DNA from: a phage
Direction: 5' to 3' (one strand)
Length of the DNA stretch: 51,285 nt
Sequence record: PZ445413.1
Shown here: one piece after another, positions 6,164 through 42,257 of the stretch
How positions within the stretch are numbered: position 1 is the stretch's first letter
How the letters are laid out: each line of letters begins with the position of its first letter
Translations under genes and position numbers: made by a program
The notes under the pieces: generated by a model
Told to the model about the DNA's origin: nothing
Databases searched by the model: none
What the model saw: the letters and a program-made list of their open reading frames with translations, nothing else

Positions 6164-6177
6164 AAATCTGTTGCACG

Positions 6178-6195
6178 TTTAACAAAAAATGCTAT
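6178..6195 (-). repeat. 20-bp box, inverted orientation within late operon
   Basis: plus strand reads tttaacaaaaaatgctat. Confidence 0.45.
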
Positions 6196-6199
6196 CATT

Positions 6200-9927: not shown

Positions 9928-9945
9928 TTTTAACAAAAAATGCTA
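9928..9945 (-). repeat. 20-bp box, inverted orientation within late operon
   Basis: plus strand reads ttttaacaaaaaatgctat, immediately upstream of chaperone RBS. Confidence 0.45.
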
Positions 9946-9961
9946 TTCAGGAGAAATGACA

Positions 9962-29267: not shown

Positions 29268-31268
29268 ATGGCAATTCCAAACATTAAAAAGCAATTATCT
29301 ACATTAGGCGATGCAGTGATAAAGGCGATTCAGGATCGTTTTACCGTTGGCGATATTAAGCCCTATCCTTATCAGTGCGTTGCATACGCTGAGATCGCAA
29401 AGCGACTGAGCAAATACAACGATCCGTTTTTCGTAAAGGCTTCCGTTTCCGCTGGTAAAACAATCATCTTTGCTATGGTTGCCGCGCAGTGTAAAAAGAT
29501 GGGGCTAAAAATGATGGTGCTGGCTCGCCAGGCTGAAATTGTGGATCAGGATTCAGAGGAGATCACAAACTTCGGCGTGCCAAACTCTATCTATTGCGCC
29601 GGACTCAACACCAAAAGCGCATACTTTCCAATTGTAGTTGGTTCCGAGGGAACTGTTGCAAATGGTCTGTTTAAGGCTCTTGGCGATTATGTGCCGCACG
29701 TTATCGGTATTGACGAATGTCACCAGGTCGATTGGGAAGATTTAGCGGATTCAATCGAAAACGAGGAAACATTCGAGCAAATGACCACTAAAAAAGGCGT
29801 TCGCGTCCTGGATGGTGATGGCTCGCAAGTTTTCACAAAAGACGGTGAGCCAATGGAGGGAACCGGACGCAGCCAATACACAATAATCATTCGTGAAATG
29901 CAGCGACGTTGCAAAGAGGCTTACGGGCATGAGTTGCGAATTTTTGGAATGACGGGATCGGAATTTCGCGGGGTTGTCCCAATTCTGGTTGAAGATAAAA
30001 AGCAGAAAGGTTTCTGGCGTGAGCAGGTAACGAACATTGATACCAATTATTTGATCGAATTCGGTTCTGTTGTGCCAACGAATTTTGGCAATGTTGATGG
30101 TCTGGGGTATGACCTTTCAGAGTTCACGGCATCAAGCGAGGATGGCGTTGCAGACTTCGATCAGAAAACACTCCGCAAGATGGAGGAGAAGATCCACAAT
30201 GACGCAACAATGACACAAAAAATTATGGCTCGCGTTCATGAGATCTGCAAAGACAGAAACGGCGTGTTAGTAACTTGCGCTGGTGAGCGACATTGCAAAG
30301 AGGCGGCGGCGGCTTTACCGCTTGGCACAACATACCGCATTATCACTGGCAAGACCGGAGAGAAACAGCGTAAGGAATGGTTACGTGAGGCATACGAGGG
30401 AAAAGTGAAATATATTTTCCAGGTTATGGCCTTAACAACTGGCGTTAACGTTCCGTTTTGGGATACATCCGTTATTCTTCGCAAAATCGGATCGCTCACG
30501 TTGCTGATTCAGCTTTTAGGGCGCGGAATGCGACTGCTTAAAAAATGGCATGTTGAGCAGGGATTCAAGAAAAGCGATCACCTTGTTTTAGACTTTGCCG
30601 GATGCATGGATGAATTAGGGCAACTTTATTTTGATCCTATCCTGGAGCAAGCGCAGTTTCAGCGCCGACACGACAACGGAAAAGATCCGAAACATTGCCC
30701 GATTTGCGGCACTGAAAATTCATTCTACGCTCGCCGCTGCATAAAGGTTGATGAAAATGGTAATCGGTGTGAACACTTCTGGAAATTTAGAGAATGCACA
30801 GATCAGATTGACCCGCGCACGAAAAAAGTTATTGTGCATGGTTGCGGAACAAAAAATGATGTTGTAGCGAGAATTTGCCGTCATTGTGATGTGTCACTAA
30901 TAGACCCTAACGAAAAGTTATCCGGCAAGCACTACACCAAAAACGATTGGTGCAATGTGAAATCGTTCCGTGTCGATATGACGAAAAACCAAAAAGGGAT
31001 CGTGTTCTGCTATGAATTGGAGGCACACGGAGAAACATTTAAGGCTTACGAAAAGTTTTTCCCTGAGTCAGATAGCCAGATCTGCAAAACGAAATGGCGA
31101 CAAACGGCGCTTAAACATATTCCAGATCGCAGAATTGCCGGAATGGTTGCCAGCTATCGCAATGCGCGTAAAATCATGAGTTATGCACATCATATTTTAC
31201 CGCCAGTTAAGGTTACGCATCGCAAAAATGCGAAAGGCGAGGATATTATTTATCATCGGGAGTTTTAA
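29268..31268 (+). CDS. SF2 DEAD/DEAH-box helicase with C-terminal zinc ribbons
   Basis: 666 aa; motif I SAGKT, motif II DECH; C-terminal CxxC pairs. Confidence 0.7.
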   Translation: MAIPNIKKQLSTLGDAVIKAIQDRFTVGDIKPYPYQCVAYAEIAKRLSKYNDPFFVKASVSAGKTIIFAMVAAQCKKMGLKMMVLARQAEIVDQDSEEITNFGVPNSIYCAGLNTKSAYFPIVVGSEGTVANGLFKALGDYVPHVIGIDECHQVDWEDLADSIENEETFEQMTTKKGVRVLDGDGSQVFTKDGEPMEGTGRSQYTIIIREMQRRCKEAYGHELRIFGMTGSEFRGVVPILVEDKKQKGFWREQVTNIDTNYLIEFGSVVPTNFGNVDGLGYDLSEFTASSEDGVADFDQKTLRKMEEKIHNDATMTQKIMARVHEICKDRNGVLVTCAGERHCKEAAAALPLGTTYRIITGKTGEKQRKEWLREAYEGKVKYIFQVMALTTGVNVPFWDTSVILRKIGSLTLLIQLLGRGMRLLKKWHVEQGFKKSDHLVLDFAGCMDELGQLYFDPILEQAQFQRRHDNGKDPKHCPICGTENSFYARRCIKVDENGNRCEHFWKFRECTDQIDPRTKKVIVHGCGTKNDVVARICRHCDVSLIDPNEKLSGKHYTKNDWCNVKSFRVDMTKNQKGIVFCYELEAHGETFKAYEKFFPESDSQICKTKWRQTALKHIPDRRIAGMVASYRNARKIMSYAHHILPPVKVTHRKNAKGEDIIYHREF

Positions 31269-31270
31269 TT

Positions 31271-31702
31271 ATGATTACTGATAAGGGAGATTACCTGGAG
31301 TATTACGAACGCGATCCGAGTGATACCAGGAAAGAGGATTCGCACCAGGTTGATTGCGTGGCGTGGTTGCGCCACCATTACCCGCAACTTTTATTTTGGC
31401 ACACGGTAAATGAGGGGCAAAAGACGATTACCAGCGCATTGAGGGATGAACAAGCCGGATTGCGAAAGGGTGTTTCTGATTTCGTTATCTTGATTGGTGA
31501 TCCGTCTTATAGCGATATGCCATACCCGTTTGCAGCTATTGAATTAAAGCGCGTGAACAAATCTGGAAAGGGAAAGGCATCACCTGTCAGCGACGAACAA
31601 AAGGCTTTTTTGCGTGATGTTCGCCAGCGCGGAGGATTTGCGGCTGTGGCTTATGGGTTCGAACAATTCAAACTGGCTATTGCGGATCTTTTCTATAAAT
31701 AG
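31271..31702 (+). CDS. VRR-NUC domain nuclease
   Basis: 143 aa; GVSDF...IELK (D...ExK) signature; overlaps helicase stop. Confidence 0.6.
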   Translation: MITDKGDYLEYYERDPSDTRKEDSHQVDCVAWLRHHYPQLLFWHTVNEGQKTITSALRDEQAGLRKGVSDFVILIGDPSYSDMPYPFAAIELKRVNKSGKGKASPVSDEQKAFLRDVRQRGGFAAVAYGFEQFKLAIADLFYK

Positions 31703-31743
31703 CATTTTTTGTTAAAACAGGCGCAACGGAATGCGCCATAATG
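31699..31743 (+). repeat. box cassette upstream of dam
   Basis: ATAGCATTTTTTGTTAAAAC with VRR-NUC stop TAG; hairpin ggcgca/tgcgcc; CATAAT. Confidence 0.5.
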
Positions 31744-31773
31744 CACACATCAAGACAAGCGAGGACATTTAAA

Positions 31774-32520
31774 ATGGCAAAAGATATTTTAGACAATGCA
31801 ACCATTGACGGCGTGGCGCAGGTTGACGAAATGGATTTTCACGAATTACAACACGGCAGATATTCAGATATTGCGTTGCGTTCTGGTGGTCATTATCAGC
31901 CAGTGAGGGAAAACACTTATTTCAAAGTTAGCGGCAACCGTTACGCCGGAAGTAATACGCCGGACGTTGTGCGCGACTTGTGGGCTACTCCTCGCGAGGT
32001 TGTAGAATATATGCAAGAGCGTTACGGTAAATATGATCTTGACGCGGCGGCAAGTGATGATAATAAAGTTTGCGATAAGTTTTACAGTAAGGAAACTAAC
32101 TGTTTAAAGCGCTGGTGGGGTTCCAAAAAACATGTTTGGCTTAATCCACCATACAGCAATCCAGATCCTTTTGTGTTAAAAGCAATTGAGCAAATGGAGC
32201 ACGATAACCAGATTGATATTTTATTACCAGCTGATAACTCAACAGCATGGTTTAAGGATGCACAGAAAAACGCGGCGGAAATTATCTGGATTACTGGCGA
32301 CACCTGGAAAGGAGAGGATGGGCGCGAATATTCAAGAACTGGACGCCTTGCCTTTATTTCTGGTCTTACTGGCGAACCAGTGCAAGGAAATAACAAAGGA
32401 AGTGTGATTTTTGTTATGCGCCAACTTAAAGAGGGTGAGCAACAGCAAACTCACTACGTTACAATTACTGAAATTTGCCCTTCTGTTAAGAATCGCAGAG
32501 CAAAGGCAAGGAGTTTTTAA
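31774..32520 (+). CDS. dam: DNA N6-adenine methyltransferase (phage Dam family)
   Basis: RBS gagga before ATG 31774; catalytic NPPY motif (WLNPPYSN); DLDAAAS motif. Confidence 0.75.
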   Translation: MAKDILDNATIDGVAQVDEMDFHELQHGRYSDIALRSGGHYQPVRENTYFKVSGNRYAGSNTPDVVRDLWATPREVVEYMQERYGKYDLDAAASDDNKVCDKFYSKETNCLKRWWGSKKHVWLNPPYSNPDPFVLKAIEQMEHDNQIDILLPADNSTAWFKDAQKNAAEIIWITGDTWKGEDGREYSRTGRLAFISGLTGEPVQGNNKGSVIFVMRQLKEGEQQQTHYVTITEICPSVKNRRAKARSF

Positions 32521-33340: not shown

Positions 33341-33415
33341 ATGCGTGGTTATTTTGCTGTAGTATTTGCGCCGATTGCTGGATGGCTGGCAATGTATTAT
33401 TTGGTAATGATGTAA
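33341..33415 (+). CDS. small hydrophobic peptide (24 aa, single TM)
   Basis: RBS gaaggtagg before ATG; MRGYFAVVFAPIAGWLAMYYLVMM; not in ORF track. Confidence 0.3.
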   Translation: MRGYFAVVFAPIAGWLAMYYLVMM

Positions 33416-33428
33416 GAGGAATTTTGAA

Positions 33429-34550
33429 ATGGCTGTACGAAAAATCACCGACGAGCAGTTTATTAAAGCACGCAAAGAGGGGAAAACCTACAAGCAGATC
33501 GCAGAGGAGTTCGGCCTTAATGTTCGCAGTGTCGAGCGTCGAGCGTCACGCCTTGCGCGTTCTGGTGAGACTGAAATTAAAGGCGCTCCAGGTTATGCAG
33601 TTGTGCGCGAGTCTGTTTTAACTCGCGCAAATGGTGAGGAAGTCATGAGATGGACTATCACCAATAAAGACAAAGAGCAATTAGAGGCTCTCATGCAAGC
33701 CGCTATGGATGCTTTCGCAGAGGAAGTGCCACGCTTGGAGCCGCAGCCGGAATCACGCGCTGATTATTCTGAAAGCCTGGCTTTATATCCGATCTTTGAT
33801 ATGCACCTGGGGGCAATGGCTCACAAGCATGAGTGCGGCGAGAACTACGACACCGCAACGGCGGAAAGGGTTATGAATAACTTTTTCGATTATGCAGTTA
33901 GTAAAGCGCCAAACAGTGAAAAGGCGGTGCTCCTGATTGGTGGCGATATGCTTCACAGTGACGGCCTGGAGGCTGTAACACCTGCAAGCGGTCACGTTCT
34001 GGATCAAGATAGCCGTTACGCAAAATTAGTTTACGTTGCAATCCGAGCCACGCGCCGCGCAATTAGCCTCATGCTGACAAAGCATAAAGAGGTTGAGGTG
34101 CAAATCATTGAAGGTAATCACGACCAATCAGGAATGATCTGGCTACGTGCTGCAATGGCGGCGGCATACGAAAACGAGCCTCGCGTAAACGTTGATGTGT
34201 CTCCGCGCGTTGTGCATCACACGCAATATGGTAAAACGTTCCTGGCTTACCATCATGGACATACGATCCGCAAGCCTGAAACGCTGTTGATGATGTGCGC
34301 GGCAGATTGGCGGGAGGATTTCGGAAACTCAAAGAGCATGTATGCGCATGTAGGCCATTGGCATCACCAGACCGTAACAGAAACGAGCCTGGGTATTGTG
34401 GAAGTTCATTCCACTATGGCAGCAAAAGACGCTTACGCGGCGCGCGGTGGTTGGCGATCTCGTCGTCGTGCGGCGGTGATTGTTTACGATAAGGAATATG
34501 GCGAGATTGGTCGCTTCATGTTCTACCCTGAAATGATGGAGATCAAATAA
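33429..34550 (+). CDS. HTH domain - calcineurin-like metallophosphoesterase fusion protein
   Basis: 373 aa; N-terminal HTH-like (YKQIAEEFGLNVRSVERRASR); phosphoesterase-like motifs DMHLG, GGDMLHSD, GNHD, HHGH. Confidence 0.5.
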   Translation: MAVRKITDEQFIKARKEGKTYKQIAEEFGLNVRSVERRASRLARSGETEIKGAPGYAVVRESVLTRANGEEVMRWTITNKDKEQLEALMQAAMDAFAEEVPRLEPQPESRADYSESLALYPIFDMHLGAMAHKHECGENYDTATAERVMNNFFDYAVSKAPNSEKAVLLIGGDMLHSDGLEAVTPASGHVLDQDSRYAKLVYVAIRATRRAISLMLTKHKEVEVQIIEGNHDQSGMIWLRAAMAAAYENEPRVNVDVSPRVVHHTQYGKTFLAYHHGHTIRKPETLLMMCAADWREDFGNSKSMYAHVGHWHHQTVTETSLGIVEVHSTMAAKDAYAARGGWRSRRRAAVIVYDKEYGEIGRFMFYPEMMEIK

Positions 34551-34717
34551 TGAAAGTTCGTTGCATCCGTAACACATCAAAATCTTTACCGTTTATCGTT
34601 GGCGCTGTTTATCGTGCCTTGAAACTTTGTGGTGATTTATACGAGATCCGCGACGGTCAAGGAAGCGCAATCCAGGCACCATTAAACGGACATTATCTGA
34701 CTTTTTCGCCACTATAA
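34550..34717 (+). CDS. small protein, member of KxxC...GKxY paralog family
   Basis: 55 aa; taATG overlap with previous gene; MKVRCIRN...VGAVYRAL motif; followed by terminator. Confidence 0.4.
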   Translation: MKVRCIRNTSKSLPFIVGAVYRALKLCGDLYEIRDGQGSAIQAPLNGHYLTFSPL

Positions 34718-34743
34718 AACATAATTAAATCATCAACTTGATA

Positions 34744-34771
34744 GGGGTTGGCATTTGCCAGCCCCTTTTTT
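34744..34771 (+). terminator. rho-independent terminator before lysis cassette
   Basis: ggggttggc attt gccagcccc followed by TTTTTT. Confidence 0.6.
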
Positions 34772-34847
34772 ATTGTTCCGTTTTCGCTCAAGGCTGGTTA
34801 GTATATATTCACATATTTATTGACAATTTAACTTTGAGGATCTAATC

Positions 34848-35063
34848 ATGAAAGAATTTATCAACGCCGCAACAATGGGTACTGGCGGATCATCATTAAC
34901 CAGCGCAGCAACGGGGCAGATCACAATTGCTGTTGCAAGCCTGGTGTTGATGGCGGCTTTTGGTTTATGGGGCGCTTATCTTCGCTGGAAAGATAGCAAG
35001 GCGTTTCAGGAAGCACTAGATCGCGGAGACATTCAAGAGGCAATCAAAATCAGGGGTAAATAA
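34848..35063 (+). CDS. holin (pinholin candidate)
   Basis: 71 aa; single strong TM segment; charged C-terminus; RBS gagga; immediately upstream of SAR endolysin. Confidence 0.55.
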
Positions 35064-36223: not shown

Positions 36224-36266
36224 AATATACCAGATACAAGATCGGGTTTTTTAACAAAAAGTGCTA
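36224..36266 (-). repeat. box cassette (minus strand)
   Basis: minus ATAGCACTTTTTGTTAAAAAAC ... TATATT; box carries stop TAG of 36264-36458. Confidence 0.45.
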
Positions 36267-36458
36267 TTCAAGCAATCTGACGTTAACCAATATCACGCCA
36301 TCACCATCACATAAATTATGCTCCTTGTCGCCAAACGCTTTCATGTCGGCTCGCATTATGGTTAACAGCGCATAAATCAGATCATCATGTGAGATTGAAT
36401 TTACGGCGCAATGCTTCAATATCTCGTCGATTAGTTTTTGAGCAGAATAATTCTTCAT
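36264..36458 (-). CDS. hypothetical protein (overlaps next gene)
   Basis: 64 aa; stop TAG inside box; 74-nt out-of-frame overlap with 36385-36777; weak RBS. Confidence 0.3.
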   Translation of the reverse strand: MKNYSAQKLIDEILKHCAVNSISHDDLIYALLTIMRADMKAFGDKEHNLCDGDGVILVNVRLLE

Positions 36459-38378: not shown

Positions 38379-38435
38379 TTGTTGCCGCTAATTATAACGG
38401 CAACAATACTACCCTGTTTTAACAAAAAGTGCTAT
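38379..38435 (-). repeat. box cassette with TATAAT in hairpin loop (minus strand)
   Basis: minus ATAGCACTTTTTGTTAAAAC then ttgttgccg-TTATAATTAG-cggcaacaa then aaaggaga-ATG. Confidence 0.55.
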
Positions 38436-38680
38436 TTGATCCGCTCTATGCGAGCCATTAGTTTTCCGGTCAGTGAGCTAACGCATTCAGCCGTAACGCT
38501 ATCTATTCGCTCAAAAGGTAACGATTGGCGGTAATTGTGTCCGATCTGCCATTTGCCGCCAACAACCTTAATTGGCTTGATAATGTCGCCAACTTTCATG
38601 CAGGAAGTTTCGCCATCTATGACTTTATAGCGCCATTCCTTTTGCACGTCGCCAACGCCCAAATAACGCTTTTCACTCAT
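38432..38680 (-). CDS. small protein, paralog-family member
   Basis: 82 aa; ATGA overlap with upstream gene; stop TAG inside box. Confidence 0.4.
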   Translation of the reverse strand: MSEKRYLGVGDVQKEWRYKVIDGETSCMKVGDIIKPIKVVGGKWQIGHNYRQSLPFERIDSVTAECVSSLTGKLMARIERIK

Positions 38681-39124: not shown

Positions 39125-39172
39125 TTGCATTATGCCAGGCTTTTACACCTGGCTTTTAACAAAAAGTGCTAT
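39125..39172 (-). repeat. box cassette (minus strand)
   Basis: minus ATAGCACTTTTTGTTAAAAGCC; hairpin gccagg/cctggc; CATAAT; RBS aaaggagc. Confidence 0.5.
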
Positions 39173-39864
39173 TTTGAATTAAAGATCATGACGGCGCGCG
39201 CAAAGCCGCGAGGGGTAAGTGAGCGCAATTGCTTTGTCCTGGCAGACTTTCCGCCTAAATACTTCCACGCCCAAAAGAAACCGATATTGATCGGGCCTGG
39301 TACTTTATCAGGCATTACAAAACCGTTACCGCACCAAATGCAAGTTTTCTTTGTGTACCCGTCGAAAGCTGGCATTTTTGGATGATAAGGCTTTTCATCC
39401 TCTCGCATGTATCCGCCGTATTCGAACGGGTGAAAGTAATGGTTTGGTTTGCGCCATTTAGTTGACAGAAGCCCCACGGGATTTTCCACCATCCAGGGGC
39501 AACCATAGCGATTGCCTAACGCCTCAACCAGTTTTGCATTACTGACAGCCAGATCAACAGCGTCCTCGTTGCGCTCATGCTTGCGCCCACTATGCGCTAA
39601 CTCAGTGCATGACGGGAAAGCAAAAATAATGTCAGGCTTGCCGATTACCTTTTGCTGGTTCCCTGATAGGTAAGCCACCGAGCCAGCCGGATCAAACGTT
39701 TCATCAATCCAGGCATTCACATAATGCAGGTTTTCATGCTGCATCTTGATTTCGTATTCGCCGTGATCCGCTGTATCAGCATTGAAACAGAAAACAGTGT
39801 GACCAGCTTTCGCCCAATCCAGGCCCATAATGCCGGAGCCGTCAAACAGTGACCAAATAACCAT
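39169..39864 (-). CDS. DNA (cytosine-5) methyltransferase-like protein (divergent)
   Basis: 231 aa; motif I-like LFDGSGIMG; motif IV-like FPSCTELAHSGRK (PSC in place of PCQ); motif VI-like MVENPVG; RBS gagggtga; stop TAG inside box. Confidence 0.4.
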   Translation of the reverse strand: MVIWSLFDGSGIMGLDWAKAGHTVFCFNADTADHGEYEIKMQHENLHYVNAWIDETFDPAGSVAYLSGNQQKVIGKPDIIFAFPSCTELAHSGRKHERNEDAVDLAVSNAKLVEALGNRYGCPWMVENPVGLLSTKWRKPNHYFHPFEYGGYMREDEKPYHPKMPAFDGYTKKTCIWCGNGFVMPDKVPGPINIGFFWAWKYLGGKSARTKQLRSLTPRGFARAVMIFNSK

Positions 39865-40411: not shown

Positions 40412-40460
40412 GCGCCCATTATACCAGGGCGCGTGATTTCGTTTTAACAAAAAGTGCTAT
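40412..40460 (-). repeat. box cassette with extended -10 in hairpin loop (minus strand)
   Basis: minus ATAGCACTTTTTGTTAAAAC then gcgccc-TGGTATAAT-gggcgc. Confidence 0.55.
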
Positions 40461-40461
40461 T

Positions 40462-41532: not shown

Positions 41533-41582
41533 GGGGCTATTATGCCAACTAACCCCGATCCAGTTTTAACAAAAAGTGCTAT
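41533..41582 (-). repeat. box cassette (minus strand)
   Basis: minus ATAGCACTTTTTGTTAAAAC; gggg...CATAAT...cccc; leader caaccaatcaggag. Confidence 0.5.
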
Positions 41583-41857
41583 CAAGCCTTTTTCATTTCA
41601 TCGCTGATGAATTTCAGCACCTGGCGCAAGAAAACCTCGTTGCTAATAGTCGCTGGCAATTCCTCTTTAATTTCTTGCGGGAGGTAAACGTTGCCATGCC
41701 AGGTTAAGTTGTCATAGTTGATGCTGTAGGAGCAAAGCCATTCGCAATCGTTATCAGCTTCCCAAATGCACAGTTGCAGACCGTCGCCGAAATCCTCAAC
41801 AGTCAGATCCAGACCGCGTTTCTTGGCAAAGTTGAAAGTAGTTTTGCTGATGTTCAT
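41582..41857 (-). CDS. hypothetical protein (first gene of leftward early operon)
   Basis: 91 aa; leader cccaatcaggagcaagcgagc-ATG; box cassette upstream. Confidence 0.45.
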   Translation of the reverse strand: MNISKTTFNFAKKRGLDLTVEDFGDGLQLCIWEADNDCEWLCSYSINYDNLTWHGNVYLPQEIKEELPATISNEVFLRQVLKFISDEMKKA

Positions 41858-41898: not shown

Positions 41899-41942
41899 AC
41901 TATAGCAAATCAGATCAGATCGCTTTTAACAAAAAGTGCTAT
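41899..41942 (-). promoter_or_regulatory. box-type promoter cassette for leftward early operon
   Basis: minus-strand ATAGCACTTTTTGTTAAAAG, 19 nt, TATAGT; no upstream gene, so the box is not merely a stop-codon context. Confidence 0.45.
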
Positions 41943-42257
41943 TGATGGATTGTGTATAAAACAACCGCTTTGCAGCACCATTGCAAAATCTGAAATGATA
42001 GCCGCATATCGTTGCACATCATGCAAGATAGTGATTGTTGCAGTTTAGACAATAATTAGTGTGAATTTTTACTGATTGTGTGGGGAATGGTGAAACCTGG
42101 TTCGCGAGTGTCAAGTTTTCGCTCTCGCCACGGCGCCTTGTCTCCTCTTGTTCAGGGGTGTTCACAGATTTCTCCGCATTGTTTCCGCGCCGTTTTTCGG
42201 TGTTGAGTAAACAAAATAAACACTATAAATCCTCTATAATACATTGAAATTAAAGTA

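Follow-up and report, generated by a model that had tools for sequence, protein, structure and literature searches.

An HTH-metallophosphoesterase protein at the early/late gene junction of a Drexlerviridae phage, with a predicted Mre11/DP1-type active site

Introduction

The calcineurin-like metallophosphoesterase (MPE) fold is shared by several DNA nucleases, among them Mre11/SbcD with its Rad50/SbcC-type partner and the DP1 subunit of archaeal PolD, a 3'-5' proofreading exonuclease. The products of exonuclease-type members like DP1 and Mre11 are 5'-deoxynucleoside monophosphates (5'-dNMPs). PdeM of Pseudomonas putida (PDB ID 6nvo), a ligase-associated single-stranded DNA endonuclease, is a stand-alone nuclease that works without Rad50, and its gene lies beside that of a superfamily 2 (SF2) helicase. 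The fold also includes phosphatases, such as the MPE phosphatase used in bacterial Pnkp end-healing and the PPP-type phosphatases with the motifs GDxHG, GDxVDRG, and GNHE. Here, we describe a phage protein in which a helix-turn-helix (HTH) is fused to such a domain, referred to below as HTH-MPE. It is encoded at 33429..34550 (+) of sequence record PZ445413.1, a stretch of 51,285 nt that is called the window throughout, with positions counted from its first letter.

The window is essentially Escherichia phage vB_EcoS_W011D (MK778457 / NC_054893; Drexlerviridae, Tempevirinae, Changchunvirus), whose copy of the gene is 99.6% identical in nucleotides and 99.7% identical in amino acids. The W011D ortholog gp57 (YP_010064711.1) is labelled “putative phosphoesterase” or “DNA repair exonuclease” in its records, and the phrog_704 profile (“DNA repair exonuclease”) covers the protein from end to end, aa 4-370 pairing with positions 2-389 of its 390 (E 5.2e-149). 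The fusion is thus already known, being annotated in GenBank/RefSeq and belonging to phrog_704; HTH-MPE is an ordinary, already-catalogued gene, and adds no new kind of system to the window. The module that contains the gene is present in 508 of 522 Drexlerviridae genomes, the exonuclease itself being outside the scope of that study (PMC13164509). In a re-annotation of phage TLS, a “proof-reading exonuclease (gp66)” is named among the possible replication/recombination proteins, by annotation only (PMC11447400), and is probably the ortholog of HTH-MPE. Our literature search found no experimental work on any family member, and no defence-escape mutants or essentiality screens.

Results

Catalytic domain and active site

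The single long open reading frame (ORF) at this position starts with ATG and encodes 373 aa plus the stop codon, with a Shine-Dalgarno-like AAGAGG read from the sequence 9 nt 5' of the ATG (33414..33419, +). The calcineurin-like MPE domain covers aa 113-370 (33765..34538, +) and carries the complete dinuclear-metal signature (DxH, GD, GNH[DE], H, and GHxH) in five motifs, all on the + strand: motif I, D124-M-H126-L-G128 (DMHLG, 33798..33812); motif II, GGD173-M-L-H176-S-D178 (aa 171-178, 33939..33962), which has the Mre11-type GDxxH; motif III, G-N230-H231-D232 (GNHD, aa 229-232, 34113..34124); motif IV, H275-H276-G-H278 (HHGH, 34251..34262); and motif V, G309-H310-W-H312-H313 (GHWHH, 34353..34367).

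We aligned 66 divergent family members which are 31-56% identical to HTH-MPE. The invariant residues are D124, H126, G128, E135, D173, H176, T184, R196, N230, H231, H276, G277, G309, and H312, whereas H278 and H310 (each in at least 90% of the members), W75, D192, R252, D334, and R346 are nearly invariant. Judged from this strict conservation of the metal ligands, the active site is under selection. Three of the conserved residues, T184, D192, and R196, lie in an insertion between motifs II and III (aa 183-197, VTPASGHVLDQDSRY; 33975..34019, +), which is a probable substrate-binding loop.

The gene also contains a 25-nt inverted repeat, with arms at 33931-33955 and 34109-34133 which are 80% complementary and separated by 153 nt. 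The two arms overlap codons of motif II (LLIGGDMLH) and motif III (EGNHDQSG), and the repeat is probably a side effect of the protein-coding sequence.

At the level of the family, the Pfam domains Metallophos (PF00149) and Metallophos_2 (PF12850) are matched by 16 and 10 of the 66 members, respectively, at E<=0.01 (best E 7e-6). Since HTH-MPE itself lacks a Pfam Metallophos match, the MPE assignment rests on the motifs, the family-level matches, the profile comparison, and the fold. For the profile comparison, the family profile was aligned by hhalign with the P. furiosus Mre11 N-terminal sequence, which was taken from the PDB set and verified, giving a probability of 88.5% and an E of 2.7e-6. 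The alignment pairs D124/H126 with D8/H10, D173/H176 with D49/H52, and N230/H231 with N84/H85 of Mre11, and exposes an insertion of about 25 residues in the family (aa 183-197 plus flanks) between motifs II and III. The Mre11 counterparts of H176 and H231 are two histidines which are not metal ligands and which are implicated in Mre11 nuclease chemistry.

A first AF2 model built from 21 close homologs (pLDDT 73) was replaced by a model on the 66-sequence alignment, with a mean pLDDT of 93.2 and a pTM of 0.82. The beta-sandwich MPE fold is present in this model, the alpha/beta MPE domain running from about aa 113 to the C-terminus. The best match in the fold search is the PolD DP1 proofreading exonuclease (16.0), followed by T. 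maritima Mre11 (14.9), S. aureus SbcD (14.7), the MJ0936 phosphodiesterase (14.0), other Mre11 entries (13.1-13.6), LpxH (13.4), Vps29 (12.9), Rv0805 (12.6), a PdeM-like nuclease MPE (9.2), and the Ser/Thr protein phosphatase PP5 (9.0). For the earlier, weaker model, the top Foldseek match was M. jannaschii Mre11. The BFVD fold search returned only phage proteins that were uncharacterised or named by annotation. The motif pairing and the model together indicate that the active site is of the Mre11/PolD-DP1 nuclease type.

N-terminal HTH and linker

The N-terminal region is predicted to fold into a three-helix HTH (aa 8-45; 33450..33563, +) resembling sigma-70 region 4 or HTH_23, with helices at aa 8-16, 21-28, and 32-45 in the AF2 model. 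The Pfam search of aa 10-47 gave Sigma70_r4_2 just below its threshold (25.2 bits against a cut-off of 25.7), and HTH_23 and HTH_28 were also below threshold (E 3e-4 to 6e-4). Close homologs bear a precomputed PF08281 match, and many HTH families are matched among the 66 members (best E 2.6e-7). In 60 of the 66 members, a conserved beta-hairpin is preceded by additional N-terminal sequence, about 70 residues in the median. The hairpin (aa 56-80), which keeps W75 in 62 of the 66, and a following helix (aa 82-98) are family-specific and link the HTH to the catalytic domain (33594..33722, +). On the evidence of profiles and model, the DNA-binding-type fold at the N-terminus is probably real and is a feature of the family at large.

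An earlier note, made from the letters of the DNA alone, had described the N-terminal ~50 aa as HTH-like, followed by the phosphoesterase-like motifs DMHLG, GGDMLHSD, GNHD, and HHGH. The three helices bear out the former, the four motifs are all found at the places it implied, with motif V (aa 309-313) in addition, and the proposed fusion is confirmed by the motifs, the family-wide profile matches, the high-confidence model, and the fold search. The profile matches to metallophosphatases that it looked for were found with the family and in the hhalign comparison with Mre11, and the HTH is predicted, while the single protein is without a Metallophos match.

Family spread and naming

Relatives of HTH-MPE were found by tblastn in 2053 of 50,697 phage records (about 4%), in phages whose hosts include Escherichia, Klebsiella, Salmonella, Vibrio, Campylobacter, Flavobacterium, Rhodobacter, and Ruegeria. 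When 1.84 billion representatives of clusters at 50% identity were searched exhaustively with HMMER, 4618 clusters reached E<=1e-3 and 1019 reached E<=1e-30. The members are mostly 360-480 aa long, and the homology begins in most of them at about aa 50-70. Their names are inconsistent and include phosphoesterase, DNA repair exonuclease, DNA polymerase II small subunit, transcriptional regulator, winged HTH (wHTH) protein, oxidoreductase, and hypothetical.

Position in the window

On the + strand upstream of HTH-MPE, the Pfam scan indicated an SF2 helicase (ResIII/Helicase_C; 29268-31268) and a VRR-NUC nuclease (31271-31702). These are followed by Dam (31741-32520) and several small ORFs, the last of which, DUF7334-like, is separated from the HTH-MPE start by a 97-nt gap. 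A weak terminator-like hairpin in this gap (33374-33393; 8-bp stem with 3 GC pairs, then GTATTATTTG) could attenuate read-through into the gene.

Downstream, the ATG of a 55-aa DUF7244 gene (34550..34717, +; Pfam DUF7244 E 1.2e-27) overlaps the HTH-MPE stop codon by 1 nt. The gap is -1 in the closest relatives too, suggesting that the two genes are probably co-transcribed and translationally coupled. Next come a strong intrinsic-terminator-like hairpin with a T-run (34743..34776, +; hairpin 34743-34766 with a 10-bp stem and 7 GC pairs, then TTTTTATT), a promoter-like site TTGACA-18-AATCAT (34820-34849) immediately 5' of the holin gene, and the lysis cassette of holin, endolysin, and spanin (from 34848). 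The same order of HTH-MPE with or without tightly coupled passengers, terminator, and holin is found in nearly all Drexlerviridae-type loci of a first survey, which comprised 80 related viral loci with 42-100% identity and called ORFs.

Read from this gene order, HTH-MPE is the last conserved gene of an early/middle replication-recombination operon, and it neighbours the lysis cassette without sharing an operon with it. We rejected the gene as a member of the Drexlerviridae lysis cassette, since between the two lie a conserved terminator and a separate promoter-like site. The earlier note had placed it rightly between small genes near dam and the lysis cassette, the DUF7244 ORF lying between HTH-MPE and the holin gene.

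The DUF7244 protein is identified as a standalone SH3, and a place in the Drexlerviridae lysis module has been proposed for it (PMC13164509). In the window, and likewise in close relatives (loci L009-L013 and L046-L067), the terminator parts the DUF7244 gene from the holin gene, while the DUF7244 start overlaps the HTH-MPE stop. From this arrangement, the SH3 protein may be co-expressed, and possibly work, with HTH-MPE rather than with the endolysin.

Context in other phage lineages

The T1-like phages share the order Dam, small ORFs, MPE, optional SH3, terminator, and lysis genes. In Klebsiella webervirus-type phages, Salmonella Jersey-like phages, and Yersinia vB_YenM_12, two genes come after MPE, the first for a HAD-type PNKP phosphatase (PF25109), the second for a P-loop dNMP kinase (phrog_139). 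The PNKP 3'-phosphatase has 162 aa and the kinase about 190 aa, and the codons overlap in the Jersey-like phages (gaps of -4 and -1 nt). This pair directly 3' of MPE recurs in three unrelated lineages, namely the Klebsiella T1-like loci (L034-L059), the Salmonella Jersey-like loci (L072-L087), and the Yersinia locus (L007, 7223-8281). By its arrangement, the set of MPE, phosphatase, and kinase looks like a mobile three-gene module for end processing or nucleotide salvage, or like a split T4-Pnk-like enzyme.

A different setting is found in E. coli lambdoid prophages, whose MPE is 64-65% identical. Here, an O-like initiator and a variable gene precede MPE, a DnaB helicase gene follows after 18 nt, and NinB lies farther on. 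MPE stands between the O-like initiator and dnaB in the prophage of E. coli GCA_005390225.1 (L002, 7665-12559) and in loci L020-L032, L050, L058, and L061. The variable gene is T5orf172/DUF4379 homing-endonuclease-like, Ant-like, or of another kind, and the position of MPE 18 nt 5' of dnaB is about where a helicase loader would sit. In three other lambdoid-type loci, the stop codon of MPE overlaps the start codon of a Q-like antiterminator gene, and the Sloth-like phages show the order MPE, terminator, TerS, TerL, and portal. A terminase-like or packaging nuclease, as the position 5' of TerS/TerL or the portal gene might imply, was rejected, as TerS and TerL are encoded separately both in those phages and in the T1-like phages.

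A second survey covered 80 loci on diverse environmental viral contigs. Within three genes of MPE, HNH endonucleases occur in 13 loci, junction resolvases (DUF1064, NinG/Rap) in 9, and a FEN-like exonuclease in 4; 3 loci have a dNMP kinase, a DNA polymerase, and a primase-helicase near MPE, and in 36 the gene after MPE is in convergent orientation. What these settings have in common is a “nin-like” position, MPE being the last early (DNA-metabolism) gene at the junction with late functions.

The 20-mer direct repeat

The window contains 15-18 copies of a 20-nt motif, AATAGCACTTTTTGTTAAAA, against about 0.03 expected by chance, and their orientation follows local transcription. Written over 20/21 nt, the motif reads AATAGCAC(TTTTT/GAAAT)TG(T/C)TAAAA(C). 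Copies on the + strand are at 1565, 29191, 31698, 32861, 43685, 44242, 45537, 46530, 47532, and 48710, and those on the - strand at 6177-6196, 9928-9947, 20640-20659, 36249-36268, 38417-38436, 39154-39173, 40442-40461, 41564-41583, and 41924-41943. Most copies have a good -10 hexamer (TATAAT, cATAAT, or TATAGT) about 19-22 nt downstream, so that the 20-mer occupies the place of the -35 element, and the hexamer is preceded or flanked on both sides by a GC-rich inverted repeat whose sequence varies. The 20-mer is the “direct repeat” already reported for TLS, T1, Rtp, and Rogue1 (PMC11447400).

Every Drexlerviridae-type locus contains the motif, whereas the lambdoid, Sloth-like, and Jersey-like loci, which carry the same MPE family, do not. 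Recognition of AATAGCACTTTTTGTTAAAA by the HTH was therefore rejected as a family-level explanation, the motif being limited to Drexlerviridae and missing in the other MPE-bearing lineages. A candidate reader of the 20-mer is the 147-aa “transcriptional regulator” encoded at 28735-29178 (-).

Discussion

The explanation we favour, giving it about an even chance of being right, is that HTH-MPE is an active two-metal phosphodiesterase with an Mre11/DP1-type site which acts on DNA, is tethered there by its own HTH, and serves replication/recombination or nucleotide recycling before packaging. Catalysis would use two metals, probably Mn2+, and the protein would cut or trim DNA through the Mre11/PolD-DP1-type active site. 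The HTH, instead of a Rad50/SbcC- or DP2-type partner, would bring the nuclease domain to the DNA. Expression would be with the operon of SF2 helicase, VRR-NUC, Dam, small ORFs, HTH-MPE, and SH3, and not with the lysis genes, such that DNA ends or replication/recombination intermediates could be processed shortly before the late functions, with a possible contribution to nucleotide supply. We read the protein as a DNA nuclease because its closest folds are DP1 and Mre11/SbcD, the GDxxH histidine is invariant, and its neighbours belong to DNA metabolism. The earlier note had left the choice between a DNA-targeted nuclease, a phosphatase, and a regulator; the nuclease is now favoured, and the strict conservation of the catalytic residues speaks against a pure regulator.

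Several results weigh against this explanation. At the sequence level, HTH-MPE has no Pfam Metallophos match even at E<=10, nothing came near the NCBIfam cut-offs, with no SbcD or PdeM match above threshold, and the PDB sequence search was empty with both the single sequence and the family profile. The lead of DP1 and Mre11 over generic phosphodiesterases in the fold search is modest, which makes a DNA substrate no more than the likeliest option. The capping domain of Mre11/SbcD is missing, the protein ending at aa 373 right after the last MPE strands (aa 348-365). A Rad50/SbcC-type partner was found neither in the 19 kb around the ortholog, nor in the Pfam scan of the operon, nor among the recurrent neighbours in the 160 related loci. 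About one in ten members (6 of 66) lacks the HTH, no DNA motif could be identified for it, and a search for repeats in the surroundings of the gene yielded nothing that convincingly resembled an operator. Finally, lysis genes are the commonest single neighbour in both surveys (29 of 80 loci in the first and, as endolysins or spanins within three genes, 31 of 80 in the second). The simplest explanation for this proximity, though not a complete one, is that MPE and the lysis genes both stand at a module boundary, and the frequency could reflect something besides that position.

If DNA is the substrate, the product might be what matters. A nuclease which degrades host or unpackaged DNA to 5'-dNMPs for re-use by the phage would fit the tight coupling of MPE to the HAD 3'-phosphatase and the dNMP kinase in three unrelated lineages, as well as the dNMP kinases adjoining MPE in environmental loci. 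These kinases are read as nucleotide-supply genes in the KanT1 paper (PMC13164509). The kinase pair is, however, missing from most Drexlerviridae, including this window; the family is common in the replication modules of temperate lambdoid prophages, where wholesale destruction of host DNA is unexpected, and bulk degradation does not obviously require an HTH which reads sequence. In phage T1, the older genetics defines a host-DNA-degradation function, gene 2.5, which is not known to have been mapped and to which such a nuclease would correspond, but the literature search found nothing to link it to HTH-MPE. Overall, we regard such a salvage role as unlikely. The same neighbours resemble end-healing sets, in which an MPE would stand beside a PNKP-type phosphatase and a P-loop kinase, so the enzyme might instead be a phosphodiesterase or phosphatase for RNA ends or small molecules (cyclic (oligo)nucleotide immune signals, Np4N, or 2',3'-cyclic phosphate), with the HTH put to another use. 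This too seems to us a poor prospect: no ligase was seen among the recurrent neighbours, PADLOC gave no match for HTH-MPE, the gene is a core gene in a fixed position and not a variable accessory as is typical for counter-defence, and the top structural matches and GDxxH indicate DNA nucleases, with the HTH fused in 60 of 66 members.

The HTH could also be the main actor, binding promoter or operator DNA to regulate the early-to-late switch, with the MPE as an enzymatic or sensing module. Sigma70_r4_2 is the best HTH score and PF08281 is found in close homologs, some records carry the label “transcriptional regulator”, and many lineages have the gene right at the early/late junction, 5' of lysis genes, TerS/TerL, portal, or Q. 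Moreover, Drexlerviridae carry about 20 unusual promoters with the conserved 20-mer in place of the -35 element. The 20-mer is nevertheless restricted to this family and missing in the lambdoid, Sloth-like, and Jersey-like loci, whose MPE has a similar recognition helix; some lambdoid phages already have a late regulator, the Q antiterminator, beside MPE; the strictly conserved catalytic residues favour an enzyme; and the HTH is missing in 6 of 66 members, making a regulatory role quite improbable. Least credible is a Ser/Thr/Tyr protein phosphatase like lambda NinI (orf221) which modifies host or phage proteins. The MPE fold is shared, and in the three lambdoid-type loci the gene lies directly 5' of Q, the slot of the lambda phosphatase gene. 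The motifs FDxHxG, GGDxLH, and GNHD differ from the PPP type, the fold similarity is not close, and the Pfam and NCBIfam phosphatase models are unmatched by HTH-MPE, which makes this reading highly improbable on motif and fold grounds.

A bolder extension of the DNA-nuclease explanation, which we hold only tentatively and consider unlikely, is that the family forms a distinct, Rad50-independent class of Mre11/DP1-like DNA nucleases with a built-in HTH and beta-hairpin, a hallmark of the early/late junction in tailed phages which fills an unassigned step, with the SH3 protein as its partner. Such a class would trim and clean replication and recombination intermediates before packaging, or degrade host DNA in T1, and the co-transcribed SH3 (DUF7244) would be a partner of HTH-MPE and not a lysis factor. 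HTH-MPE is one of the persistent genes of Drexlerviridae and is found in thousands of metagenomic clusters, while its public names are mutually at odds. Its substrate, once known, would correct a large block of phage annotation and would also tell whether phages employ a self-targeting, Rad50-free, Mre11-like nuclease.

Compared with the known systems, HTH-MPE shares the motif II GDxxH and the motif III histidines with Mre11/SbcD (P. furiosus 1ii7, T. maritima 3qg5, and S. aureus 7dog) at 11-18% identity, about 180-190 residues aligning to Mre11 chains of 333-476, and is not matched by the curated SbcD/Mre11 models of Pfam and NCBIfam. The HTH and beta-hairpin module and the ~25-residue insertion between motifs II and III have no counterpart in Mre11. 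Identity to archaeal PolD DP1 (PDB ID 5ihe) is 15%, and the OB fold and the DP2 subunit of that enzyme do not accompany HTH-MPE. T1-like phages depend on the host DNA polymerase, and the annotated 19-kb stretch around the W011D ortholog has no DNA polymerase gene. The similarity to PdeM (TIGR04123) is a faint NCBIfam match of 19.7 bits against a cut-off of 150, confined to aa 208-238 around GNHD. Lambda NinI/orf221 shares the superfamily and, in some lambdoid relatives, a comparable place 5' of Q, where the nin-like region ends. From phrog_704 and the GenBank/RefSeq orthologs there is no difference, as they are the same family, in a slot 5' of the lysis cassette that is common across Drexlerviridae, under names given by annotation transfer. 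To these records, the present analysis adds a firmer sub-family placement as Mre11/DP1-like rather than PPP-like, an assignment to the early operon rather than the lysis cassette, and a context map across phage lineages.

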